DNA of 63,657 bases, the filler included, from Rozella allomycis CSF55 (Eukaryota), in assembly GCA_000442015.1 (NCBI GenBank). It is 5 parts of 5 records of this genome, joined end to end, with 100 filler letters (N's around TTAATTAATTAA, not from the genome) between each part and the next. Parts side by side here need not be neighbours in the genome. Positions count along the whole stretch, not along the records: positions 1 to 18,657 come from KE561316.1; 4 more parts are not named here. One strand, 5' to 3'. The translations under genes were made by a program, and so were the position numbers. This document shows, piece by piece, positions 1-51,546 of this stretch. Positions within the stretch are counted from its first letter, which is position 1. Every line of letters begins with the position of its first letter. A model generated the notes under the pieces. The model saw only the letters and a program-made list of their open reading frames with translations, was not told the origin of the DNA and searched no databases.

Positions 1-3000
1 AGAAAGTCTATTTTAGAGGAAGATTTGAAAGCCACTTCATTGATAAAGAAGAATTCTAATAAAATATTGCCACCAACGCCTGCACCAAGAAGATTTTCAA
101 TTGCATCTTTAGGCGTGAGACCAAAGCAAGATGAATTGATTATTGAGAGTGTTAAAGAGCCAAATTTAAGCAAAGATCAAGATGAAATGGAAAACAACGA
201 TTCAAACGCTCTATTAAACGCAATAAGTGTGGCAAAACAAGGAAACAATGCAAAGGCAATTGAAATGTTGAATAAAATAATTTTAATGAATCCAATCAAT
301 GTTGAAGCTCTTTGGTATCGCCATTTAATCTATTTAGAAGAAAATGATTTAGAAAATGCATTAAAAGATTTAGAAAGTATTTTAAATGAAAATAAATCTT
401 ATATCCCTGCGTATCAGTCAAAAGCTAAAATAAATGAAGAAATGGGACACATCAAGCAAGCCATTTCATGTTTTACAAACATTATCAAGATAAAACCAGA
501 TTCAGAAGCTCATTATCAAAGAGGCTTATTATTTGAAAAAGATAATGTAAAAATAATTGAATTTATTTAAAGGATACATTTTTAGCTGCAGAAGATTTCA
601 AAATTGCGTGTGCGTTGGACTTTAACAACATCAATGCAGCCTTCAAATATGGATTAAATTCATTCGAAAGAGAAATGTGGGATGAATCTATTTTATATTT
701 CAATAAAGTTTTGGATGTTAATCCATCGAATGCAAAAGTTTTGTCTTTTAGAGCAAAGGCATTTTCGTCCAGAAGAAATTACGAAAATTCATTCAAGGTA
801 AATACACTTTCGTCTATTGAAAATAGGATATATGTAGTGCTATTCAATTAGATCCAATGAATAAAGATTATTATTACTTTAGAGCTTGTCTAATCAGAAA
901 GATTAACCCAATTCAATCGATTCAAGATTTAAGCATTTCTTTACTATTAGATTCATCAAATACAAATATATCAGCGTACTTTAAACGAGCTCTCGTTTAT
1001 TCTGAATTAAATCAACATGAACTTGCTATTAAAGACTTTCTAAAAGTTTTGTCATTTGAAGAGGGCGATTTCAATTCTCATATTAACATTGCTTTAATTA
1101 ACTTGAAATATCTTTTTGATTATGAAAATGCTTTAAGTTTTATTAATGATGCTTCACTGATTGACATTTTAAATCATAAACCATTAATATACAGAGCTAT
1201 ACTCTTTCATGGAATATATTCAAATAAATTTGCTCTGAATAAACTAAATTTGAAACTTAATTTGGATCAATGTATAAATCTAGCTATTAGAGACTATTCT
1301 CTTGCCTTGAAATTGAACCCAAATTTACATGCAGTTTACATTTGCAGGGGTCATTTACTTTACAAATTAAAGTAAATTATTATTCTCAAAGTTAAAAGAC
1401 GATATAAAGATGCCACGAATGATGTATCTGCGGCATTGAAAATTAAACCAGATCTCGTCAGCAATCAACTTGAAGTATTCTTTTTAATTTATGCATGAAA
1501 GAGTTTAACTGTGAAATTATTCAAAAAAGAGTATCAACAAGCTTTAGAAGACTTTAAATCTCAGATGAGAATTCAATTGAAGCCAACAGCTACAGACTTT
1601 TTATCGGCTGTTAAAATACACTTCAAAATGAAATCATATCATGGTAAGACATTATAAAAATAATCAAAAGGTAAATTCATCAACAAATAATTCAAAGACG
1701 CAATAAAATATTCAAATGATGCTCTAGAATTAGTTCCACTAAATATTGTTGCTTTAAACTATCGAGGTCTATCATTATTCAATCTCAGATTGTTCAAAGA
1801 AGCCTTAAATGATTTCTCTTTCATTATAGAGTTAGATAAATCAAATAAATATGCTTATTATCAAAGAGCTAGATGCAAATTTAGATTAGATAATGACAAG
1901 GGTTTACTTGACATTCAAAAAGCTCTAAAATTGGATCCTGATTTTGTTGATTGCTATTTAGAAAGAGCGTCATATCTTCAAAGTAATAGGAATTTAATGC
2001 AACTAAATAGATAGTAAATATATAGTTTTTCAAATTGAAAGAAAATGAAGAATTAAATCAAGCAATAACTGATTGTTCTGATGCTCTTGTAATAAATCCA
2101 AAATGCCTGAGAGCTTATTTATTAAGAGCCCAAATAAGGTATAAACTTGATCAAAAACTGCAAGCTATTTCTGATTACACAAAGGCAATATCAATCGATC
2201 ACGTAATGAATAAATTAATAAGTTATTTCACAGAACTCTGTAATTGCTTACTACAATAGAGGCGTCGTATATCAATCAATGCACAATTATTCGCTTGGGA
2301 TAAAAGATTACAGCATTTGTCTCTTGATTTTACCTGCTAAGCATTCTCTAGTCGCTGTAATTTTATTGTTATTATGCAATCAATAGAGTGTCTACAGAAA
2401 CAGGGCACTGCTATATTGGCGTCAAGGGTACCATGAATTTGCATTGTCAGATCTTTACTATGCAAGAGAAAGGTTTCCGAAAGAAGCTAAGCTGCACGCT
2501 CTATTGGGAATGTGTCTAGAAAAATTAAAAAGATACAAAGAAGCCCTCAATTCTTATTCAACTGCCATCAAATACAACCCTTTTCTCGTTGAAATTTATC
2601 TATGCATGGGTAATGTGCAAACCGCCATGGATAATATTCAAGCTGCAAAGTACCTATTTTCAATAAATTTTATACCAAAGGAGTTTGTATCAAAATGCTA
2701 TTAGAATAAAGGTCGACTATTATCCCGCTTATTTGAATCTGGCTTATACGTTACAAATGCAAGGAAAGTTTAAAAGGGTATCATTAAATAAATCGTTATA
2801 CTAGGCGTGGTCGGTTTTTACTTCGGCTATAAAAATCAATCCATTTTGTGCAGAGGCTTATGAAGGTAAACCAGTAAATTCTTCACCACAAAGGCAGATC
2901 CATTGTTTATTTATTCATGAAAAATTCTTTTGCGGCCCTAAATGATATTACAAAAGCTTTGGTAAATACACATTCATACCTTAACAGCAATTGGAGCCGA

Positions 3001-3639
3001 AGAGTGCAGAAATTCTCACAAACAGAGGCGTTATACTACAGATTACAGGAAGCAATTCTGAGGCCATGAAAGATTTCAAAGTAAAGTTTTGACTTAAATT
3101 TACTCTGATGTCTGTCGAGATTAATCCAAAATATCATCTAGCTTACTTTAACATGGCAAATCTGTATTTTTCACAGCTTCAATATGAAGTAGCTTTAGAA
3201 AATTACAACAAGGTATCTAATTATTAACAAGATTATTTCAAGTGCCTAGAAATTGTGCCAAAGGATGAAGAATCTCTTTTAAATAGAGCAATTACATTTG
3301 CTGCGCTGAAAAGTAATTTAAAGAGTGTAATTTCCTAGATTATCAGGATTCACTATCCGATTTTAATGCTGTTTTAGCGCTGAATCCGAACAATCCTCAT
3401 GTCTTTTTCAATAGGGCTCAAGTTTACCAAAAACTTGGTATTATTCATAAAAAGTTCCATATAGGAATGTTCTACTTTGCTGAATTGGATTATAAAAGGG
3501 TATTGGAATACATGCCTCAAGATCAAATGACAATGATGAGATTGGGCGATACGTAAACTGTTATAAATTCAATTATAGAATCGGTAAACAATCGAGGATT
3601 ACAGAAGCTATGGAGTGGTATGCTTCAATGGATGAATAA
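1..3639 (+). CDS. Multi-TPR protein (TTC6-like), 5'-partial, about 20 introns
   Basis: Successive TPR motifs (e.g. AYYQRARCKF, AYLLRAQIRY, ILTNRGVIL) join in frame after removing 26-31 nt introns (547-572, 798-826 etc.); stop TAA at 3637-3639. Confidence 0.85.
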
Positions 3640-3720
3640 AACATTTTTTCTTCTCCTTAATTTTATGTCAAACGCATAATAAAAAGATTTGGTTTTGATA
3701 TTAACAACCCTGGTCGATCA

Positions 3721-4455
3721 ATGTTTAAACGATTACAATTCGCGAAAAAACTCGCTAGGACTAAATACACACTCCCTGACCTCTCATATGACTACAATGC
3801 GCTCGAGCCTTACATTTCAGCTGAAATTATGCAACTTCATCATCAAAAACATCATCAAACATACGTGACCAATTTAAACAATGCAATGGACAAGCTATCT
3901 ACAGCGTTCACAAAGGAAAATTTGGAATCCCAAATATCTTTACAACAAGCAATAAAATTCAATGGCGGAGGACACATCAACCACACAATCTTTTGGACAA
4001 ACCTCGCAGGGAAAAGAAATGGCGGTGGTGAATTGGCAAATAGTATATTGATTTTCCTTATTTTAATAGATGATCTAAAGGCAGCTATCGAAAAACAGTT
4101 TGGATCGGTAGATCAGTTTAAAACTGCATTTAACAACCATGCTGTTTCTGTGCAAGGATCTGGTTGGGCCTGGCTGGTATCACATAATTATCAATGCAAA
4201 GTAGGGATTCAAAACTGATTCGAAAACATTGCAGATTGCTACTACTGCTAATCAAGACCCATTGCAAAGTACTACTGGTTTGGTTCCATTGTTGGGCTGT
4301 GATGTTTGGGAACATGCGTAAACAGTTTTCTTTTGTTTAAAAGATATTACTTGCAATACAAAAATGTCAGGCCAGAGTATTTGAAATCCTTTTGGGAAGT
4401 TGTCAACTGGAAGAACGTAACTCAAAGATATCACGACGCTGTACAAAAGGTCTAG
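3721..4455 (+). CDS. SOD2: Mitochondrial Mn-superoxide dismutase
   Basis: [39 protein letters not shown] after three introns (first is 4043-4069); short N-terminal presequence; TAG at 4453-4455. Confidence 0.95.
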
Positions 4456-4477
4456 TGAAAAATGTTGGCAATAAATT

Positions 4478-5503
4478 TTATTTGGTTTTGCTTTGTGGAA
4501 TTGTTTTGTCATCTTCATTAACGGTCACTTGTTTTATTCCCAAAGCACGTCTTTCAGTTTTCACTAGCTTTTCCAACTCTTCCTGAGGCAGGGCTTTACG
4601 TAAATCTTCTTCCCTCAAAACCAATCTATCAGCAAGGTGATGATTAACGTCTCTGTGGGCTGCCTCATCCGCGCGAACCGCCAAAACAACGTCTTTCCTT
4701 TATTAGCAAATATATTACCTCTAAGAGTAGCATTTTTATCCAAATTCCAGTAGTCAATGGCCATCTTTGGAGCTTTGACATTTTCTATCTTTCCTCTGTC
4801 GATTTCTTCCAAAAATTTGGTATATGACACAATTGCCTCTTCCTCTAAATAACCAACCACACGGTGAGCAGTTTTTGGGAAAAATACATACAAAATCAAA
4901 TAAAGATTGAAGAAAACTCCTTGCGTAATCAGAACCAAAAATCTTTCAAATCTGGAAGGTTGCGTAATTTTCATCCATGTCATTAAATGCATTCTTTCAT
5001 TTTCAGCTTCGTGAAGCAAATGATGGATCCAGCCACCGTCATGTTTCATTTTTCTAAGAGATGTCAGATGGCGAACCATACCGGCAACCATTCCTAAGTT
5101 AAGTAAATTCGAATGAAATACCGGGAACAGCTGCAACAGTTTCTAACACAATAGCTCTGTGAATATAATGTTTTTGGAAAAATAGATCTGCAAAAAATCT
5201 CATGAAGCGCACCGTTTTGAATGCAATGTAGTCGGAGGGAATATCTAGGTATAATATTTTGGATTATTTACGGGGAACTCGATGGATATCTAATGAAATA
5301 TCCAAATTTTCTAAATCTTTTGTTGTCAAAGACTGCTTGTTTAGAAACTCTTTTCTAACTGGAGATGGAAAGCGGGGTTCAATGTTCGTGAACTTAAAAC
5401 GTTTAGATGAGACATAAGCAAAATTAAAATTCGATCTGTTCACACAGAAATGCTGCACTTGATGCGGAATCTTAACAAAATTGAATTTGGAAATTGTAAA
5501 CAT
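4478..5503 (-). CDS. AOX: Alternative oxidase
   Basis: [46 protein letters not shown] di-iron motifs; three GT-AG introns; presequence-like N-terminus. Confidence 0.95.
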
Positions 5504-5673
5504 GTGGCTTAGCAGATCGAGCGATTCAGGCTAATAATAATTTTATCGGACGGGGAGTTTACGACCCGGACTTCAGAAACGATTATTGGCAAGTTGAGTT
5601 AATGCCATTTTCACTTCGAATATACACTCACTTTAAGGGATTTACACCGTGAACCAGGGTGGTTGTCGAGTGN

Positions 5674-9368: not shown

Positions 9369-9717
9369 TTGAATCATCAATAAACTTCTCTGTTATCTCT
9401 GTTAANCTTTAATTTTTTAAATTAATTGGGGCAGATTATCTTGTGTTGCCCCACAATTTTTAGATAATTTACCTTACAATGCTGATTGACATCCCAATTT
9501 TTGTTTCGAGTTTTACAGCAAAAGAATAATAGTTTTTTAATTTTTCAAATTAATTGGGGCAGATTAGCTTTCTAGGCTCTCTAAAAAAGTAAATGTGCCT
9601 TTTGAATAAAAGTCCCAAAAAGAACCTTATAACCAGAAGCTTTTTAGATATGAAAAAGCTTTATCACAGNTCTCTGTTAAAAAAAAGTTTGGGTCTGATT
9701 TCCAATTTTCAGAAATT

Positions 9718-11829
9718 ATGACCATGCAAAACTTACTTAAAGGCAATAGATCCGCTGTTATTTTTGGGATATTTCTATTAATTGCAGTAATTATCATAAG
9801 ATTATAATAAAAGGGTATAATATCGCTTGCTACAATACTAATTACAAGTCAATTCAGAAGATTAGATGGGTGTCCAAAAACAATCCCCATAAATAACAAT
9901 ATGAATTATATAAATCCTGAAAGGATACCAAAATCTGCTTCAGCGCAGCTCTTTTATGATCGCTTACATAGAACGGAATTCATGATACATCATTTGAACT
10001 TTTCTTACCACGAAAAAACATTTGATTTGCTAAATGAATTTTCCTCCTCACTTAAAAACTTTCATGTGAGACTATCTAATAAGTTTTCTCAGTCATATGG
10101 AGATATTGGAAATTACATTCTGCAAAATTATACGAAACAAGACTTTATACCCAACCTAAACAATCAAGCTCGAGAAATCGCCAAAGTCTTTATTGATGAA
10201 TGTCAACATACCGTCCTGACAGTAAACGAATTTCTGCAAGATGAAACCCTTTCAAACAATGAATCATCAAAAAATAAAACGAATTCTATGGTAGATAATG
10301 TCATTAAGAATGTAGCAGTGGCGGCAAATGATCTGGAAAAGTCTTTAAATGATCAGTCATTTAAGAAGAAACAGAATGAAAAAGGAACGACGTTGGAAAC
10401 AGTTATTAAAATCAAAGAAGAGGAAGAAATAAAGAAACAAGGAAGTCAAGGAAATCTAGCATCTACTATTCTAATTGACAATGCCAATAACCAATATGTT
10501 TTAGCAAAGCCAAGCGATATTACAATTCTCTACGCTGATCCGAGATTTTTACAAGAGTTAGTGGCTGTGAGTATTACTTCATTCGTATTATCATGGTTGA
10601 TTGAAAGAATCCACTTGCCCGGATTTCTTGGTTACATTTGTGCAGGTATCCTACTCGGACCGGCTGGACTTAACTACATCAAGGTATACACTCGACAAAA
10701 GTATTTATTGTAGAATCTTATTCAATTTGGAACTATTTCTCAGCTGGGCGTTTTGTTTATGATCTTTTTTCTCGGTTTAGAATTTGAGTTGGACCGATTG
10801 AAGCAAATATGGCATGTCTCAGTGTTAGGAGGGATCGCATTTATGTTATGTATTATTTTTTCTACTTTATTGTTTGTTTTTCAGATAAATAACAATTTTA
10901 TGGAGGGACTTGTAACCGGGTTTTGTGTCGCTTTGAGTTCTACAGCAGTAGCATTGAAATGCATGGGACCTTCTTCCGAAAATGATTCAGAGAGTTTCGT
11001 TAGTGGAATGGTAGGAATTCTAATTGTTCAAGATGTATTTCTTTGTCTTTTCCTCGCTGTATTCCCTTCTTTGACCGAATCGTCAATGTCTTCTTTGACT
11101 ATAAGTATTTCAGTCAAACTTCTCCTTTTAGTACTATTTTGTGCTGCCTCGATTTATTCCATTAAATTTCTACCAACAGTTCTAAATCTACTAAAGAAAA
11201 TCCAATCAAAGAGAAATTCTAGGTCCTTGAATGTTGTTCTAATTGCTCCAAAGCATCCATCAGAAATAGAAAATTCTTTAATTGGGAGTATCTCATTTTG
11301 TTTCATATTGGCATTTATATCTGAACATATTGGATTGTCAATGGAATTCGGTTCATTCATGGCTGGATTTGCTTTGAACTCTCAATCAAAGAATATTCCT
11401 TCTTCTATTCATAGAATTATAATTCCTGCTATCGAAGCAATATCAACTTTCTATTCTGTCCCGTTTTTCGCCTCGATTGGCCTCCACGTGTATCCACCTT
11501 TTCTTTTTCATCAATGGGATGTATTATTTACCTTGACAATTATAATTTTACTATTAAAATTCAGTGTTCTTTTTATTATTCTGAGAATAGGCTTTAAACA
11601 ATATTCTGTTTCTGATGCCTTTTTCATGTCTCTAGGTTTGTCTCAAATTAGTGAGTTCGCTTTCGTTCTAGCTTCAAGAGGCAAAACTTTGGGCCTAATA
11701 TCACGTGAAGTTTACTATTTACTTGTTGGAATCACGTCATTAACTCTTATAATCGTTTCTATCATCTGGAATTTAGTCCGGTTTTTTAACCCAAGAAGGG
11801 ATGTTCAATATCGAAGCGTTATAGATTAA
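9718..11829 (+). CDS. TMCO3: TMCO3-like CPA2 cation/H+ antiporter, copy 1
   Basis: LIDNANNQYVLAKPSD, GYICAGILLGPAGLN, LSSTAV, LSQISEFAFVLASRG; two introns; ATG at 9718. Confidence 0.85.
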
Positions 11830-11940
11830 AACATTAGCCTCTAAATCTAAAATAAAACATTAAAGTGCTTTGGAACATTTCTTTTTACAAATTTCTGATT
11901 CGATCTTTTACCGATTTTTTACCCCAAGCGCTTTAATCAT

Positions 11941-12762
11941 ATGTTTTTTGATTGCCATTGTCACCTAGTTAATCGATATTTCTCAAAAGAAGCCATAGAA
12001 ACAATCTTAAAGAGATGTGTTAATGATATCCATCTCGTTTGTGTGGCGGAAAACGAGGATGACTTTGATGAGCTTCTACAGCTAAAAGCTCAAAACTGTA
12101 ATATTTCTATTTGTCTCGGCTTACATCCTATACAAGCAGAAATAAACAATGATCTGCAAATACATCGATCAATTTGCGAAAAGGACTGGGAGAAAATACA
12201 ATTTAGATTCGCTGATTGTTTGCACATGTCTAGGTGCGACGGAATCGGTGAAATAGGGTTAGACTTTTCTCCACATATATTCCAAGCCAACAAGAATGTA
12301 TCTATTGAGAAGCAAAAAGAAGATCAGCTACTAGTTTTTAAGAAGCAACTCGAACTTGCAAAGAAGTTTGATCTTTTTGTAAATGTTCATTCACGACAGG
12401 CAGGACATTATGCTATTGAGGTTCTTGAAGAGTACGAAATTCGTAGGTGTATACTTCACGCATTTGATGGGAAATTTAAGTATGCATTAAGAGCGTGCGC
12501 AAATGGATGGTTTTTGTCGATACCGGGAAATGTAAAGAGGAGTGATAAGTTTCAAAAGATGGCCAGAGAATTGCCATTAGAGAATATACTCATCGAGAGT
12601 GATGCTCCAGCTCTATCTGCTTTCCCAGGGGAAAGATCGTCACCTTTAGATGTTATAGATACATTGAATTTCGTTGCAGAATTAAGAAAAATCGACAAGA
12701 ATACATTAATGCGTCAAATTGAAGCAAATTTTGCTCGATTGACATCAAAGTCTTATTCATAA
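11941..12762 (+). CDS. TatD-family nuclease (TATDN3-like), copy 1
   Basis: DCHCH, GLHP, IGEIGLDF, VNVHSR, LHAFDG, ESDAP; intronless. Confidence 0.92.
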   Translation: MFFDCHCHLVNRYFSKEAIETILKRCVNDIHLVCVAENEDDFDELLQLKAQNCNISICLGLHPIQAEINNDLQIHRSICEKDWEKIQFRFADCLHMSRCDGIGEIGLDFSPHIFQANKNVSIEKQKEDQLLVFKKQLELAKKFDLFVNVHSRQAGHYAIEVLEEYEIRRCILHAFDGKFKYALRACANGWFLSIPGNVKRSDKFQKMARELPLENILIESDAPALSAFPGERSSPLDVIDTLNFVAELRKIDKNTLMRQIEANFARLTSKSYS

Positions 12763-12889
12763 TATTAGACGGTATATGAATTAGGAAAATAGTTAATAAA
12801 TATCTTTTTATATTTAATTCACTATTCATACAAATTTTCTTGTGTGCTTATCTGAGTTTGTAAAATGAAATTTCGAATTTAGAAAAGGC

Positions 12890-13127
12890 ATGTCACTGAA
12901 AGTATTTACGCATTAAATTGGTAATTAGGCGGAATTGGTTCAGTGGAATGAGGCAGTAATTAGCATGGATAGAGGTAACCTTCAAGAGGCCATAGATCTG
13001 TTCATTGAAATCGCTGATTGTGCAAAATTTAACTATAATTTGGGGAGATTATTTTTTCAACAACATGAATATGAAAAGGCTATAGGTAATATATTACAAT
13101 AAGAATAATAGCAATGTTCAACAAGTG
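12890..13127 (+). CDS. noxR: NADPH oxidase regulator NoxR/p67phox N-terminal TPR region, truncated by gap
   Basis: Spliced (intron 12902-12928): MSLKAELVQWNEAVISMDRGNLQEAIDLFIEIADCAKFNYNLGRLFFQQHEYEKAI, matching the p67phox/NoxR N-terminus. Confidence 0.75.
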
Positions 13128-13732
13128 NNNNNNNNNNNNNNNNNNNNNNNNNNNNNNNNNNNNNNNNNNNNNNNNNNNNNNNNNNNNNNNNNNNNNNNNN
13201 NNNNNNNNNNNNNNNNNNNNNNNNNNNNNNNNNNNNNNNNNNNNNNNNNNNNNNNNNNNNNNNNNNNNNNNNNNNNNNNNNNNNNNNNNNNNNNNNNNNN
13301 NNNNNNNNNNNNNNNNNNNNNNNNNNNNNNNNNNNNNNNNNNNNNNNNNNNNNNNNNNNNNNNNNNNNNNNNNNNNNNNNNNNNNNNNNNNNNNNNNNNN
13401 NNNNNNNNNNNNNNNNNNNNNNNNNNNNNNNNNNNNNNNNNNNNNNNNNNNNNNNNNNNNNNNNNNNNNNNNNNNNNNNNNNNNNNNNNNNNNNNNNNNN
13501 NNNNNNNNNNNNNNNNNNNNNNNNNNNNNNNNNNNNNNNNNNNNNNNNNNNNNNNNNNNNNNNNNNNNNNNNNNNNNNNNNNNNNNNNNNNNNNNNNNNN
13601 NNNNNNNNNNNNNNNNNNNNNNNNNNNNNNNNNNNNNNNNNNNNNNNNNNNNNNNNNNNNNNNNNNNNNNNNNNNNNNNNNNNNNNNNNNNNNNNNNNNN
13701 NNNNNNNNNNNNNNNNNNNNNNNNNNNNNNNN
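13128..13732. other. Assembly gap (about 605 N)
   Basis: Run of N; the ORFs spanning it are artefacts. Confidence 1.
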
Positions 13733-15116: not shown

Positions 15117-15470
15117 CAGTAATTAATAATAAGTCTGTTCATTCATTCAATGATATTAAATAATCGCAAAATGTTCACGCACGTGAACAAAATCTAAAAA
15201 TAGATTTTTGTTCTATATTGAGTTATTTTCAATTTTTAACTAAATTATCAAGATTCAATAACACAAGTATGTTAGAATCTTGTGTTGCCCCACAATTTTT
15301 AGATAATTTACCTTACAATGCTGATTGATATCCCAAATTTTTGTGTCGAGCATTACAGCAGTTGATAATATTTTTTTGAAATTTTGGGGCAAATTATGGC
15401 GCTCTCTAGGCTCTCTGAAAATGTGCCTTTTGAATAGAAGTTTGGGTCTGATTTCCAATTTTCAGAAATT

Positions 15471-17582
15471 ATGACCATGCAAAACTTACTTAAAGGCAAT
15501 AGATCAGCTGTTATTTTTGTGATATTTCTATTAATTGCAGTAATTATCATAAGATTATAATAAAAGGGTATAATATCCCTTGCTACAATACTAATTACAA
15601 ATCAATTCAGAAAATTAGATGGATGTCCAAAAACAATCCCCATAAATAACAATATGAATTATATAAATCCTGAAAGGATACCAAAATCTGCTTCAGCGCA
15701 GCTCTTTTATGATCGCTTACATAGAACGGAATTCATGATACATCATTTGAACTTTTCTTACCACGAAAAAACATTTGATTTGCTAAATGAATTTTCCTCC
15801 TCACTTAAAAACTTTCATGTGAGACTATCTAATAAGTTTTCTCAGTCATATGGAGATATTGGAAATTACATTCTGCAAAATTATACGAAAGAAGACTTTA
15901 TACCCAACCTAGACAATCAAGCTCGAGAAATTGCCAATGTTTTTATTGATGAATGTCAACATACCGTCCTGACAGTAAACGAATTTCTGCAAGATGAAAC
16001 CCTTTCAAACAATGAATCATCAAAAAATAAAACGAATTCTATGGTAGATAATGTCATTAAGAATGTAGCAGTGGCGGCAAATGATCTGGAAAAGTCTTTA
16101 AATGATCAGTCATTTAAGAAGAAACAGAATGAAAAAGGAACGACGTTGGAAACAGTTATTAAAATCAAAGAAGAGGAAGAAATAAAGAAACAAGGAAGTC
16201 AAGGAAATCTAGCATCTACTATTCTAATTGACAATGCCAATAACCAATATGTTTTAGCAAAGCCAAGCGATATTACAATTCTCTACGCTGATCCGAGATT
16301 TTTACAAGAGTTAGTGGCTGTGAGTATTACTTCATTCGTATTATCATGGTTGATTGAAAGAATCCACTTGCCCGGATTTCTTGGTTACATTTGTGCAGGT
16401 ATTCTACTCGGACCAGCTGGACTTAACTATATCAAGGTATAAAATAGAAAAAAGTATTTATTGTAGAATCTTATTCAATTTGGAACTATTTCTCAGCTGG
16501 GCGTTTTGTTTATGATCTTTTTTCTCGGTTTAGAATTTGAGTTGGACCGATTGAAGCAAATATGGCATGTCTCAGTGTTAGGAGGGATCGCATTTATGTT
16601 ATGTATTATTTTTTCTACTTTATTGTTTGTTTTTCAGATAAATAACAATTTTATGGAGGGACTTGTAACCGGTTTTTGTGTCGCTTTAAGTTCTACAGCA
16701 GTGGCACTTAAATGCATGGGGCCTTCTTCCGAAAATGATTCAGATAGTTTCGTTAGTGGAATGGTGGGAATTCTAATTGTTCAAGATGTATTTCTTTGTC
16801 TTTTCCTCGCTGTATTCCCTTCTTTGACCGAATCGTCAATGTCTTCTTTGACTATAAGTATTTCAGTCAAACTTCTCCTTTTAGTACTATTTTGTGCTGC
16901 CTCGATTTATTCCATTAAATTTCTACCAACAGTTCTAAATCTACTAAAGAAAATCCAATCAAAGAGAAATTCTAGGTCCTTGAATGTTGTTCTAATTGCT
17001 CCAAAGCATCCATCAGAAATAGAAAATTCTTTAATTGGGAGTATCTCATTTTGTTTCATATTGGCATTTATATCTGAACATATTGGATTGTCAATGGAAT
17101 TCGGTTCATTCATGGCTGGATTTGCTTTGAACTCTCAATCAAAGAATATTCCTTCTTCTATTCATAGAATTATAATTCCTGCTATCGAAGCAATATCAAC
17201 TTTTTTTTCTGTCCCGTTTTTCGCCTCGATTGGCCTTCATGTGTATCCACCTTTTCTTTTTCATCAATGGGATGTATTATTTACCTTGACAATTATAATT
17301 TTACTATTAAAATTCAGTGTTCTTTTTATTATTCTGAGAATAGGCTTTAAACAATATTCTGTTTCTGATGCCTTTTTCATGTCTCTAGGTTTGTCTCAAA
17401 TTAGTGAGTTCGCTTTCGTTTTAGCTTCAAGAGGCAAAACTTTGGGCCTAATATCACGTGAAGTTTACTATTTACTTGTTGGAATCACGTCATTAACTCT
17501 TATAATCGTTTCTATCATCTGGAATTTAGTTAGGTTTTTTAACCCAAGAAGGGATGTTCAATATCGAAGCGTTATAGATTAA
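15471..17582 (+). CDS. TMCO3: TMCO3-like antiporter, copy 2
   Basis: Near-identical to copy 1. Confidence 0.85.
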
Positions 17583-17693
17583 AACATTAGCCTCTAAATC
17601 TAAAATAAAACATTAAAGTGGTTAGGAGCATTTCTTTTTACAAATTTCTGATTCGATCTACTACCGATTTTTTACCCCAAGCGCTTTTATCAC

Positions 17694-18515
17694 ATGTTTT
17701 TTGATTGCCATTGTCACTTAGTTAATCGATATTTCTCAAAAGAAGCCATAGATACAATCTTAAAGAGATGCGCTAATGATATCCATCTCGTTTGTGTGGC
17801 AGAAAACGAGGATGACTTTGATGAGCTTCTACAGCTAAAAGCTCAAAACTGTAATATTTCTATTTGTCTCGGCTTACATCCTATACAAGCAGAAATAAAC
17901 AATGATCTGCAAATACATCGATCAATTTGCGAAAAGGACTGGGAGAAAATACAATTTAAATTCGCTGATTGTTTGCACACGTCTAGGTGCGACGGAATCG
18001 GTGAAATAGGGTTAGATTTTTCTCCGCATATATTCCAAGCCAACAAGAATGTATCTATTGAGAAGCAAAAAGAAGATCAGCTACTAGTTTTTAAGAAGCA
18101 ACTCGAACTTGCAAAGAAGTTTGATCTTTTTGTAAATGTTCATTCACGACAGGCAGGACATTATGCTATTGAGGTTCTTGAAGAGTACGAAATTCGTAGG
18201 TGTATACTTCACGCATTTGATGGGAAATTTAAGTATGCATTAAGAGCGTGCGCAAATGGATGGTTTTTGTCGATACCGGGAAATGTAAAGAGGAGTGATA
18301 AGTTTCAAAAGATGGCCAGAGAATTGCCATTAGAGAATATACTCATCGAGAGTGATGCTCCAGCTCTATCTGCTTTCCCAGGGGAAAGATCGTCACCTTT
18401 AGATGTTATAGATACATTGAATTTCGTTGCGGAATTAAGAAAAATCGACAAGAATACATTAATGCGACAAATTGAAGCAAATTTTGCTCGATTGACATCA
18501 AAGTCTTATTCATAA
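17694..18515 (+). CDS. TatD-family nuclease, copy 2
   Basis: Near-identical to copy 1 (four amino-acid differences). Confidence 0.92.
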   Translation: MFFDCHCHLVNRYFSKEAIDTILKRCANDIHLVCVAENEDDFDELLQLKAQNCNISICLGLHPIQAEINNDLQIHRSICEKDWEKIQFKFADCLHTSRCDGIGEIGLDFSPHIFQANKNVSIEKQKEDQLLVFKKQLELAKKFDLFVNVHSRQAGHYAIEVLEEYEIRRCILHAFDGKFKYALRACANGWFLSIPGNVKRSDKFQKMARELPLENILIESDAPALSAFPGERSSPLDVIDTLNFVAELRKIDKNTLMRQIEANFARLTSKSYS

Positions 18516-18657
18516 TATTAGACGGTATATGAATTAGGAAAATAGTTAATAAATATCTTTTTATATTTAATTCACTATTCATACAAATTTTCTTGTGTGC
18601 TTATCTGAGTTTGTAAAATGAAATTTCGAATTTAGAAAAGGCATGTCACTGAAAGTA

Positions 18658-18757
18658 NNNNNNNNNNNNNNNNNNNNNNNNNNNNNNNNNNNNNNNNNNN
18701 NTTAATTAATTAANNNNNNNNNNNNNNNNNNNNNNNNNNNNNNNNNNNNNNNNNNNN
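18658..18757. other. 100-bp scaffold gap with artificial TTAATTAATTAA linker (also 30996-31095, 49575-49674, 51447-51546)
   Basis: Identical 12-mer with stops in all six frames, centred in four N runs. Confidence 0.95.
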
Positions 18758-30826: not shown

Positions 30827-31451
30827 TAAATGTTTATTGAAAATTGTTTGCAAGAAGTCTTATTTTTTCATCCTTGATTTTACCAAGATTATTCTAATGA
30901 TAGCTTTATGTTATTTTTACCAATTTTTGTTCGGTCTGAAGTACTTTTAATCTTGCCAAAGAATTGTCCTATTTAGAAAGGAAAAAATATGCTTTNNNNN
31001 NNNNNNNNNNNNNNNNNNNNNNNNNNNNNNNNNNNNNNNTTAATTAATTAANNNNNNNNNNNNNNNNNNNNNNNNNNNNNNNNNNNNNNNNNNNNAATCC
31101 ATACTAAAAGAAACCAATTTATTAATTTTAAGAGAAGTACTATATCTTGTTTATTGTCATCTTGGTTATCAGCTCCTGTGTCTTCACCGACAACATCTTC
31201 GTTCTTTAGTTCTTCTTATCTTAGTAATTACCCTTCCTTTATTTCATGAATAAGTATCAATTCTCAATTCGCTTAATCGGGCTTGAAATTGATCTTATAA
31301 GAACAACCAATTCGAGTAAGAATTAAGATCAGAGTGTTTGAAAAGCCGGAAACGCAATTTATAAATATATCTATTTCAACTTCTTAAAAAAGGAAAACCT
31401 CATTTATTACTTTTAAGAGTAAACTCCCAGTCCGATAAAGAATAGATTTAT

Positions 31452-37432: not shown

Positions 37433-38830
37433 ATGTTTAATTCTACGCTTAGATCGCGATTTCCCTCGATTATTCAAAAACGATTTCTAAATGCATTAGC
37501 TCCAAAGCATTCTTTTTCCTATGAGCAAGGATACACAAATGTAACAAAGTTGTCAAATGGAATTACGGTGTGTACGGATCCTTCAGTTGGAGAAACACTT
37601 GGCTTAGGCTTGTTTATTAAAAAAGGGTCCAGACATGAAACTGAAGAGACAAAGCACGCAGCCAATGCTATTGGAAAACTTGCACTCCGTCGTACAAAGA
37701 AACACAACCCACTTGAAAGAGCACAAAATCTTGCTTCTATAGTAGGAAATTTCACGGTACAGGCGGAAAGAGAATATATTCTGGTTAATTCAATCATTGA
37801 GCCAAAAATGTTGCAAACAACGATGGAAACATTTGAACAAATTATAAAAGACATGGAATTTGTAGAAAAAGATCTAGAAGAAGTAAAGAGCGCCATCAAT
37901 TTTTCAGTGGAAAAAAAGAAACTAGAGAAAATGGAATACGTTCCTGAATTGATTCATCGCGTTGCTTTCAATGAAAGAAGTCTTGGTCGATCGATAACTA
38001 TGGCGGATAAGTTGGACATAAATTCGATACAGAAATTCTGGAATCAGCATATCATTCCCGAAAACTTGATGATTGTTTGTGCAGGGGGTGAACATGAAGA
38101 AATTATAAAGTTGGCGGAAAAGAGTTTTGGAGATTTAAAAAATCCAAAATTAAATAATGAAATAATATACGAAGATCCAATTTATACCGGCGGGAATCAC
38201 TTTTATCCTGACAGTTCCTTGCAGTTTGGCAATGTCGGGCTTGGCTTTAAAATCCCTTGCGCTCTTGATTTAAAATCAATGTTTGCTTTCTCAGTGGCCA
38301 ATCAAATTCTTGGCGGTGGTTCTTCGTTTTCAGCTGGAGGTCCAGGAAAAGGAATGTTTACTCGTTTATACCATGAAGTGCTTTCTGTGTATTGGTTCAT
38401 GGAAAGTGCTTTTAGTCAATCTTTCGCCTATAAAGATTCGAGTTTATTTACAATATTTGGCTCATCTGAACCAAGAACACTCCCTAATGTAGCAGGGATT
38501 TTAGCTGACAGCATTATTAATTTGGATCGTGGCATAACTCCAGAGGAACTTCAAAGAGCTAAGAATATGATCAAATCAAACGTCCTGATGAATGTGGAAT
38601 CAAGGACTGTCCAAGTTGAAGATATTGGTCGGCAAGTCATGACCTATGGTTCAAGAATGTTGGCAAAAGATCTAATGAAAAGCGTTGATGAGATTTATAT
38701 ACATGATATATCAAGAATAAAAGAATACATGCTTTCACATCCAGTGACTCTGGTAACAACTGGCAATTTTACAAGCAATTTGGATTGTCTGTATCCTTTG
38801 GAAAAGAGAAACTTTAAATTAAGTAAATAA
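37433..38830 (+). CDS. MAS2: Mitochondrial processing peptidase alpha subunit
   Basis: M16 fold; Gly loop GGGSSFSAGGPGKGMFTRLY; EDIGRQV; intronless. Confidence 0.95.
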   Translation: MFNSTLRSRFPSIIQKRFLNALAPKHSFSYEQGYTNVTKLSNGITVCTDPSVGETLGLGLFIKKGSRHETEETKHAANAIGKLALRRTKKHNPLERAQNLASIVGNFTVQAEREYILVNSIIEPKMLQTTMETFEQIIKDMEFVEKDLEEVKSAINFSVEKKKLEKMEYVPELIHRVAFNERSLGRSITMADKLDINSIQKFWNQHIIPENLMIVCAGGEHEEIIKLAEKSFGDLKNPKLNNEIIYEDPIYTGGNHFYPDSSLQFGNVGLGFKIPCALDLKSMFAFSVANQILGGGSSFSAGGPGKGMFTRLYHEVLSVYWFMESAFSQSFAYKDSSLFTIFGSSEPRTLPNVAGILADSIINLDRGITPEELQRAKNMIKSNVLMNVESRTVQVEDIGRQVMTYGSRMLAKDLMKSVDEIYIHDISRIKEYMLSHPVTLVTTGNFTSNLDCLYPLEKRNFKLSK

Positions 38831-38946
38831 ATTATTTTCTTTTCACGTCTAACTCAATTCAGAAACAGGTTGTTTTGCTGTTTCGTAATTTTGCCAAACT
38901 AAGCCACGTATTTTTATTTTCGGGTTTCTTCCTACCCTGGCTAGAC

Positions 38947-46393: not shown

Positions 46394-48117
46394 ATGAAAT
46401 TATATTCTTTAGAAATGTCGGCGACGTTACAACCCAACTTAATATATCTGTTCCCTCGATTTGAAAGCTCTGAAAATATGATAGATAGATTTATTGCTGA
46501 GTATTTCAGGCTAGAATTACATGATTTTTTTGACGAGAGTATAGACGATATTTATGAACAATATACCAGTGTTAAAAACCAGAATCTAGAAGAAAAAACA
46601 AAGTAATATTAAGATATAATCCCAAAATAAATTTTTTCTGCCCTATTCAAGGCTGAAATTAAGCTACCATGATATCTTATTAAGTAGTTACAAAGGCGAA
46701 GTTACTCAAGACATTACGACAAGAATATCTGATCTTTCTTGGTATTTGATTATAAAAAAAGAGAATCTCAGTCTGACTGCACCCAGACTTTTATCTAAAG
46801 AACTACTTTTTAGTCGTTTTATAAAGAAATTTAATCTTTGCAGAAATAACTTTGACAATTCTCGTTTTCGCAGAACAAAAACACTAGAAGAAAGTCCAAT
46901 AATGGATAGTATAATAGAATTCAAACATCTACATGCCAAAACTAAGATGGTGAAAGAATTGCTCGTAAAGTATAGATGTAAATTCAAAGAAACTACTGCA
47001 GTAATGTCTGAATTGTTCGATTTGTGCTTAAATGATATTAAGAAAGTGGAGCCAATCGTTAGAAGGGCACATTGGGCTTCATCACTGTCAATCATTGTTC
47101 ATTCGATGCTCGTAGATTATCTTTACTGTCCTATAAATCCTATCAATGTTCCATTCCCTATATTTTTTGAAGATTACGATGTATCAAAGGTACCAGATTT
47201 TATTAAGAATGGTGAATTGAATATCAAACATTATCGTGATGATGATTCCAATTTGTTAAATTCAATTCGTGTTAAGGATACATGTGACCATGAGCACTTT
47301 GACATCTTCAGTAAAATGGCGCAGGCATGCTTGGATTATCATATCAGCATTGAATGTTTGCCAGAAATGCAGTGCAGACATTTCTGGTGGGAGCTTTTGA
47401 AGCCCATATTTCCGACTCATCAAGGATATTTGGTGAGGTTAGAATATCGGGCAGATAGAATTGCCACTTATAAGTTTAAAAAATATATTGATAATTTAAT
47501 TTCGTTACAAAGTTGCTTTTGTGAAATAAAGGTGTGTGCAATCGAGGCATCAGGTTTGAATAGGCCTTTAATGAACGATGCGGGCTATTTCAAATGCCAT
47601 TACGACCACAAAGACATTCGAAAAATAATGCTAATACTTAGATCCATTTTATTGGATATGCTGTATTCTGTCAAGGATGTGACTGCTGAAGATTTGGAGA
47701 AACTTACTGCACATGGTATGCTCATTTCAGGGATGCAGGTGCAATTTTTTGTCAGATGCGTGTCAGTAACCCAGTAAAGAAAAACAATAGGCACAGAGTA
47801 TTCTTTTTTATCTTGAAGACTGGATAATCACTCTGAATGACTCCATTTCTATTGACATGTCATCTCGTTCGGATGACTTTACAACAAACGCTGATGATGA
47901 ATTACTAGATCTTGAATGGGAAGTTAATATTAACAGAAAGGTTGAAGAGATTTCTGACTTGATTTATTCAAAAACTTATAGAGAAGAATTTAACCTACAA
48001 AAATTAGATGATTTGAATCTTAGAAATGAAAGCTGGGAAGATTTGGGTCCTAAACTCGACAAGCTGTTCCATGGCTGCTCAAAAATCAAGGAATCTGCTA
48101 AAATATTAATATTCTGA
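46394..48117 (+). CDS. Putative PD-(D/E)xK restriction-endonuclease-fold protein (Crinkler C-terminal type)
   Basis: RADRI...VCAIEASG...KDIRKIMLILRSIL...AHGMLISGMQVQFF; three ORFs join through GT-AG introns; family call is by motif resemblance only. Confidence 0.5.
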
Positions 48118-49574: not shown

Positions 49575-49749
49575 NNNNNNNNNNNNNNNNNNNNNNNNNN
49601 NNNNNNNNNNNNNNNNNNTTAATTAATTAANNNNNNNNNNNNNNNNNNNNNNNNNNNNNNNNNNNNNNNNNNNNGCCTTTGGAAATTATGGGCGGGATGG
49701 TGAGTTTAAAAGACGGGATGAATTATTTCCCCAAGCCTGCCCTTCCTAA

Positions 49750-51120
<1,371 letters not shown>

Positions 51121-51446: not shown

Positions 51447-51546
51447 NNNNNNNNNNNNNNNNNNNNNNNNNNNNNNNNNNNNNNNNNNNNTTAATTAATT
51501 AANNNNNNNNNNNNNNNNNNNNNNNNNNNNNNNNNNNNNNNNNNNN

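Follow-up and report, generated by a model that had tools for sequence, protein, structure and literature searches.

A candidate 27-nt intron with TG at its 3′ end in a TTC6-like gene of Rozella allomycis

Results

The TTC6-like locus and the segment 3081-3107

The window, by which we mean the whole 63,657-nt stretch of Rozella allomycis CSF55 DNA that was analysed, opens within a TTC6-like tetratricopeptide-repeat (TPR) gene on the + strand (1..3639). This gene, which we take to be a conserved cilium-associated gene, is open at the left end of the window and closes with the stop codon TAA at 3637-3639; the part present, its C-terminal ~930 codons, was delineated from a standard-code parse, Pfam TPR matches, collinear relatives and matches to named TTC6 proteins. 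In the parse it carries 16 GT-AG introns together with the candidate intron at 3081-3107. Its exons, read with the standard code, are free of TAA, TAG and TGA, the stops that bound them lying inside introns, and they gave matches above the cut-offs to the Pfam families TPR_1, TPR_2, TPR_11 and TPR_17.

The exon upstream of the candidate (2988..3080, +; ...QLEPKSAEILTNRGVILQITGSNSEAMKDFK) supplies TPR positions 1-25 and is preceded by a GT-AG intron of 26 nt (2962-2987, +). The downstream exon (3108..3212, +; MSVEINPKYHLAYFNMANLYFSQLQYEVALENYNK) begins with an ATG at 3108, the position at which the TPR_17 match also begins (M3108), and is followed by a 30-nt GT-AG intron (3213..3242, +) containing an in-frame TAA, for which the orthologues need a 10-residue gap. 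Between the two exons, direct reading of the + strand of the window gives the 27-nt segment GTAAAGTTTTGACTTAAATTTACTCTG (3081-3107; GTAAAG...CTG), a candidate intron of phase 0. Its first four letters, GTAA (3081..3084, +), form the putative 5′ splice site. The sequence-only reading had placed a donor at 3081 and let the 27-nt segment end in CTG, and these coordinates proved exact; it had also claimed an in-frame TAA inside the segment, which was mistaken. The frame of the upstream exon runs GTA AAG TTT TGA, so that the in-frame stop is TGA (3090..3092, +), with which a protein retaining the segment would end ...KDFKVKF*, and both TAA triplets of the segment (3082-3084 and 3095-3097) are out of frame.

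Introns end almost universally in AG. In the candidate, TG stands in place of the expected AG (3106..3107, +) in the context cTG|a, position -3 being a pyrimidine and position +1 a purine. The putative branch-point adenosine, A3102 (3102..3102, +), occupies intron position 22 and is the sole A of the last 9 nt; it lies 5 nt before G3107 and 17 nt before G3119. The 12 nt that follow the segment, ATGTCTGTCGAG (3108..3119, +; 6 G+C of 12), would be exon encoding M-S-V-E at TPR positions 26-29 if the TG is used, and the tail of an intron if the next AG (3118..3119, +; context cGAG) is used instead, which would make a 39-nt in-frame GT-AG intron and delete MSVE. Joining 3080 to 3108 gives ...EAMKDFK|MSVEINPKY..., with A20, F24, S27 and P32 of the 34-residue TPR all in place, and the claim that a 27-nt splice restores exact TPR spacing was thus borne out on the sequence.

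Other ways of removing the segment were inspected as well. Shifting the 27-nt removal by -1 leaves the same protein, but its ends are AG...CT, and no register of the 27-nt removal has GT-AG ends (boundaries inspected by eye). Splicing from GT 3086 to AG 3119 would remove 34 nt and break the frame.

The public gene model of this locus, P0170 (3108-4455, +), is the 367-aa hypothetical protein ROZALSC1DRAFT_28623 [Rozella allomycis CSF55] and matches the locus at ~100% in its exons. It takes the ATG at 3108 as its start codon and joins the last TPR exons to a Mn-superoxide dismutase gene that starts independently at 3721 and carries the Pfam domains Sod_Fe_N and Sod_Fe_C. Since P0170 fuses the TPR tail to the Mn-superoxide dismutase, we treat it as an artefact and not as evidence; it looks like a fused, mis-started annotation model that misses the candidate intron. 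Gene finders restricted to GT-AG introns split a conserved repeat gene at the candidate.

Genetic code and structure of the window

An alpha-tubulin gene without introns (49768-51120, +) encodes a protein near-identical to PDB chain 8snb_AA; its open reading frame (49768-51117) matches solved alpha-tubulins over residues 1-450 and ends in EEY followed by TAA TAA. With this end and the stop-free exons described above, the genetic code is standard. A ciliate code, considered in view of the tiny introns and the many TAA and TAG triplets, was ruled out by the alpha-tubulin end and the exon stops.

Four identical blocks, each made of 44 N, TTAATTAATTAA and 44 N, were found at 18658-18757, 30996-31095, 49575-49674 and 51447-51546, and the middle of the block, TTAATTAATTAA, is a linker with stops in all frames. 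The window is therefore made of artificially joined contigs, and gene order across the blocks is no evidence of linkage. Two stretches of 3220 nt, 9685-12904 and 15438-18657, hold the same two genes each and are 98.4% identical, with 51 mismatches and no gaps; the first ends ~220 nt before a 605-N gap (13128-13732) and the second reaches the N-linker at 18658. They probably represent two alleles that the assembly placed in tandem, and not a true duplication. An Rfam scan of the whole window returned 0 matches.

Ultra-short introns of the window

Introns were predicted with our own gene parser, which combines codon log-odds, GT-AG introns of 17-60 nt and standard stops, was trained iteratively on the window and is unvalidated by RNA. 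It returned 53 gene models with 114 introns over the whole window, all ending in AG by construction of the parse. The introns proved to be very short: 111 of the 114 measure 24-33 nt (one of 24 nt, six of 25, 29 of 26, 29 of 27, 23 of 28, 12 of 29, seven of 30, two of 31, and one each of 32 and 33), three others measure 47, 49 and 54 nt, and none (0/114) falls at 34-46 nt. The modes are 26 and 27 nt, and the candidate, at 27 nt, sits on one of them (29/114). The signals recovered throughout the parse on both strands are an opening GTA and a closing [T/A]AG. In the set of 111 short introns, A stands at +3 in 108 (a GTA donor) and at +4 in 72, a consensus with which the candidate GTAA agrees; at -3 there is T in 66, A in 33, C in 10 and G in 2. 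An in-frame stop is present in 37 of the 39 predicted introns whose length is divisible by three.

When introns were scored without the acceptor dinucleotide, the candidate reached -1.33, above 32% of the 114 predicted introns. Of the 1813 GT sites located within predicted exons, only 52 (2.9%) are as intron-like over 27 nt. The intron-like pattern of the candidate is thus beyond chance, as few exon GT sites match it and homologues show their gap exactly there (see below).

The position of adenosine in these introns is strikingly regular. Of the 111 short introns, 82 have an A as their 23rd nucleotide, whatever their length (26/29 of those of 26 nt, 21/29 of those of 27 nt and 18/23 of those of 28 nt); seven have A22 without A23 and 22 have neither. 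The distance from this A to the acceptor is usually 3-5 nt and rises to about 10 nt in introns of 30-33 nt. The simplest reading of this regularity is that a minimal lariat dictates where the branch point lies, the acceptor following 3-5 nt after it. In the candidate, position 22 is A and position 23 is C.

These figures bear on a canonical splice from GT 3081 to AG 3118-3119, in which 39 nt would be removed and the 3080/3108 junction would be absent or negligible. Here an A>T change at 3106 would have moved the acceptor to the next AG, and M-S-V-E, which makes up roughly one turn of helix B of a single TPR, would be missing from the protein. Such an intron would be GT-AG, in frame and stop-free, and would use the first AG after the presumed branch A3102, yet its length falls in the interval of 34-46 nt that is empty in the parse, and its score of -10.66 lies below those of all 114 predicted introns. 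The acceptor would have G at -3, as in only 2 of the 111 short introns, whereas the candidate has C, as in 10. The last 12 nt of the 39-nt version contain 6 G+C, while all 111 short introns contain 1-5 and none at least 6, and the 17 nt from A3102 to the acceptor compare with the usual 3-5. AG 3118-3119 thus has the poorest context (GAG), at an unseen distance and with an unseen intron length. In its favour, human AG>TG mutants behave in this manner, at least in the part of the TG-acceptor study cited here (PMC2374985), and the loss of four residues would, by reasoning only, roughly keep the helical phase. On balance we consider this reading possible but doubtful, and the homologues described below weigh on it further.

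The parse was also run with any acceptor allowed. At a start penalty of -6, the candidate was chosen only at a non-AG penalty of -4, because a stop at 3092 and a restart at ATG 3108 are cheap under this setting. At a start penalty of -12, it survived to a non-AG penalty of -10, as did 38823-38848. The latter was rejected as a second non-AG intron, being an artefact that bridges the end of one gene and an RPS14-like gene. No second convincing non-AG case was present among the about 111-119 introns obtained in the window with any acceptor allowed.

Two further sites were observed in the course of the parse. The first is another place at which an intron of the usual length would not end in AG: at 46603-46630 (+) there is a 28-nt GT...AA segment with A23 present, where the parser took a 49-nt GT-AG intron ending at 46651 (46603-46651); the 21-nt difference is in frame, stop-free and richer in G+C (FFLPYSR), and the gene concerned (46394-48117) matched no Pfam family. 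At 1644-1697 (+), two perfect 27-nt intron units stand back to back, GTAAGAC...CAAAAG and then GTAAATT...TCAAAG, each with A at position 23 or 24; TPR spacing fits the removal of all 54 nt, which may be either one intron of 54 nt or two introns separated by a zero-length exon. A literature search that combined the name of the organism with short-intron terms listed no paper on its intron lengths.

Homologue alignments and the length to be removed

To align relatives with the locus, P0001 (934 aa, collinear with the window) was searched against 1.84 billion representatives, and P0001 together with its best 150 matches was aligned to 2900-3400. P0001 itself requires a 9-residue gap at the candidate and a 10-residue gap at the intron 3213-3242. 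An alignment was obtained for 139 of the 151 relatives, and 122 of these span 3060-3134. In 119 of the 122 spanning alignments there is a gap of exactly nine codons at the candidate and no other gap, the exceptions being P0036, P0062 and P0164; many of the 151 relatives are generic TPR matches and non-independent, and the top ~40 are collinear orthologues. The same 9-codon gap was found in all three of a further set of matches (3/3), namely TTC6 of Discoglossus pictus, TTC6 of Gekko japonicus and an uncharacterised protein of Anneissia japonica.

The product of the 27-nt removal aligns without gaps over 66 residues. The product of the 39-nt removal, by comparison, needs a 4-residue gap against 151 of the 151 relatives, with loss of conserved residues, and it is outscored by the 27-nt product in all 151, the median gain being 6.5 bits (range 2.3-10.8). 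The sequence-only reading had argued that the next usable AG, at 3118-3119, requires a 39-nt intron that deletes four residues of the repeat and that the protein needs exactly 27 nt out; the position of the AG and the 4-residue gap agree with the former point, and the orthologue alignments and the intron statistics of the genome strongly confirm the argument as a whole. At the place of M-S-V-E the orthologues carry [L/M/A/K..]-A-[I/V/L]-x, which means that the 12 nt at 3108-3119 have been coding. This conservation shows, as far as protein comparison goes, past coding use and is not proof of present use. Taken together, the evidence shows that the ancestral intron measured 27 nt and that 3080/3108 is the productive junction, the only one from which the conserved protein can be made.

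The relatives also identify the gene. Named TTC6 proteins from Discoglossus pictus and Gekko japonicus are 46-47% identical to the predicted protein over the 75-residue junction region. As with animal TTC6, the ~930 C-terminal residues can be aligned collinearly with larger proteins, ~1900-2500 aa long (for example, P0001 3-926 with P0019 1062-1992); of the gene itself, only the C-terminal part lies in the window. By alignment, the gene is TTC6-like and collinear with TTC6. The earlier suggestion that the relatives are TTC6 fits well with these named proteins among the matches of the protein search. Two other searches were less productive: a metagenome scan for DNA of close relatives with the exon 2234-2648 gave 3 loci of 25-36% identity, none of them useful, and a search of the junction region among proteins of near length gave no matches.

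DNA support for T3106

The base at 3106, on which the absence of AG depends, was compared with the contigs of two DNA runs. The contig of run X1 (record 5, 2338-5546, depth 204) spans the site and differs from the window only at 2491; that of run X2, which belongs to a different study (record 13, 1871-5546, depth 59), also spans the site, and all its differences lie at or before 2711. Both have T at 3106, which answers the call of the sequence-only reading for a check of this base, and neither shows any other letter, indel or joint between 3081 and 3119. As these are contigs and not raw reads, a rare variant could be hidden in them, and they carry one organism label and maybe represent one strain. 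T3106 is genuine: an assembly error is excluded, and the T may be a strain-specific mutation. That the true base is A and that T arose through sequencing or assembly error is extremely improbable, given the agreement of two runs from two studies with the window at these depths.

The stretch 2712-5546 is identical in both DNA runs. With no variation between the runs, T3106 cannot be dated, and it may be a young mutation. This matters for the view that T3106 is a disabling acceptor mutation, by which the intron would be mostly retained, so that translation would stop at TGA 3090-3092, or the mRNA would be degraded; ~149 C-terminal residues would be lost, and the downstream TPR exons would be a not-yet-decayed remnant or a separate ORF from ATG 3108. 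A parse limited to GT-AG introns indeed ends the gene at 3092 and restarts it at ATG 3108, where P0170 starts too, but P0170 is itself an artefact with its TPR exons fused to the Mn-superoxide dismutase gene, and it is implausible that a separate gene would begin 15 nt past a stop codon. Furthermore, the frame beyond 3108 remains intact as far as TAA 3639, contains three correct GT-AG introns and aligns to the C-terminal ends of the orthologues, which speaks against this view, as does the presence of T at full depth in both runs. We regard a disabling mutation as unlikely.

The remaining mechanisms by which the segment might be skipped or tolerated are, taken together, highly improbable. Read-through of the TGA, which would leave a 9-residue insert, is opposed by the standard code and by the 122 spanning alignments, in which no homologue has an insert at the site. 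Removal at the DNA level would leave a form without the segment; no joint at the site was present in runs X1, X2 or X5, so no contig skips it, and flanking direct repeats were not found, the boundaries AAA|GTAAAG and CTCTG|ATG sharing none. Run X5 covered 7 of 30 bins, the site being outside them. The donor box of U12-type introns is [A/G]TATCCTT, and the donor here, GTAAAGTT, differs from it, GTAAAG being a misfit for a U12-type intron. Cleavage of the IRE1 type is likewise disfavoured, as the 5′ boundary AAA|GTA misfits the IRE1 loop motif. An RNA run bearing the species label (X7) yielded only scraps of 18-33 nt matching the stretch 1-5600.

The same runs showed some variation elsewhere around the locus. 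Contigs of X2 differ from the window at about 30 places within 45-2711 and at none within 2712-5546. At 1351-1524, two contig versions with 10 differences and about equal depth occur in both DNA runs, which looks like heterozygosity. At 5542-5600, where many contigs end, the summed word depth reaches 38,000-93,000, compared with 59-204 in the neighbouring stretches, and a 40-nt back-joint was seen in three runs; this is a high-copy repeat.

Discussion

Judged from sequence, the segment 3081-3107 is an intron by every test but its last dinucleotide. Of the features of the ultra-short U2-type class, to which it may be assigned, it has the 5′ GTA(A), a length within 24-33 nt, a frame restored by its removal and a stop on its retention; the 3′ AG is what it lacks. 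The reading that we favour, tentatively and at slightly below an even chance, is that the TG is used as a 3′ splice site, as the sequence-only reading had proposed, and probably forms a TG-AG tandem comparable to those on record in human.

Under this proposal, 3081-3107 would be an ultra-short U2-type intron of the TTC6-like gene with TG as its 3′ end. The spliceosome would pair with the GTAA donor, branch at A3102, which lies about 22 nt into the intron, and ligate at the G five nt past A3102, i.e., at the TG, which is the usual distance from branch to acceptor in the window. AG 3118-3119, 12 nt further on, would probably help early recognition of the 3′ end and may serve part of the transcripts, yielding an in-frame form four residues shorter, so that the site would be a TG-AG tandem acceptor such as has been verified for human genes. 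Unspliced RNA would end at TGA 3090-3092.

Several observations tell against the use of the TG. The AG lying in frame 12 nt downstream is the first after the presumed branch point, and the candidate has its A at position 22 instead of 23 and C at -3 (10/111). Moreover, in the part of the human study cited here, mutating an acceptor from AG to TG brought nearby AGs into use rather than the TG, and of all candidate TG motifs only ~0.01% serve as acceptors (PMC2374985). A stronger version of our proposal would have the 3′ splice site set mainly by distance: the branch A would lie ~22-23 nt into the intron and ligation would follow 3-5 nt beyond it, so that a terminal AG would be dispensable and TG 3106-3107 would act as the constitutive and sole productive acceptor. 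We hold this to be decidedly unlikely; if true, this would be the first U2-type intron with a TG for its main 3′ splice site, a role in which the human survey never found a TG.

If the TG is used at all, a spliceosome that handles 27-nt introns devoid of a polypyrimidine tract would be able to ligate at a non-AG end, and to do so for a product that matters; this would bear on how the 3′ splice site is chosen when the branch point is only 3-5 nt away. If T3106 is only a mutation, the case would be one of ordinary acceptor loss with a convenient in-frame AG as back-up.

Among known splicing systems, the closest is that of human TG acceptors. In the part of the study cited here, TG is verified as a non-AG acceptor in human; every such TG is an alternative to an AG no more than 28 nt away, and its position -3 is a pyrimidine and its position +1 a purine (Szafranski et al. 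2007, Genome Biol 8:R154, PMC2374985). The candidate follows these rules of the tandem, with an AG 12 nt downstream (within the limit of 28 nt), the context cTG|a and in-frame spacing. Like the human tandems described there, it would be a U2-type GT intron ending in TG with an AG within 28 nt and in frame, both products being translatable. The human TG, however, is merely an alternative, in introns of normal length with a polypyrimidine tract, whereas in the candidate the predicted TG product alone fits the conserved protein, the intron would be 27 nt long and would lack a pyrimidine tract, and the AG comes after it, within what ought to be exon sequence. The same study, in the part cited, also supplies the best argument for the rival use of AG 3118-3119.

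The intron class itself has counterparts. Ultra-short introns with a median of about 22-27 nt are described in myxobolid myxozoans, Dicyema, ciliates and microsporidia; the signals of these introns have shrunk to a 5′ GTa and a 3′ AG, and a weakly conserved A lies farther from the AG in longer introns (PMC13644364, in the part of the paper cited here). This pattern of A distance in myxobolids and Dicyema resembles the A fixed at position 23 in the window. In the same part, this 2026 survey covers animals, the lineage of the window being absent, and it reports AG acceptors and nothing on TG ends.

Rare non-canonical introns are likewise on record in fungi, where ~0.26% of annotated introns are neither GT-AG, GC-AG nor AT-AC (PMC7072748, Table 1), and most such sites are regarded by the authors, in the part of the paper cited here, as mutated forms of canonical ones. 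The term GT-TG is absent from the main text of that paper. One non-AG intron in about 115 of the window would be of the order of the fungal 0.26% given in that table; the fungal cases were supported by annotation and RNA-seq, according to the same part of the paper, while the candidate is supported by protein homology only. Viewed beside these systems, the candidate is plausibly a further instance of something known but rare, met here in an unusual context for splicing.
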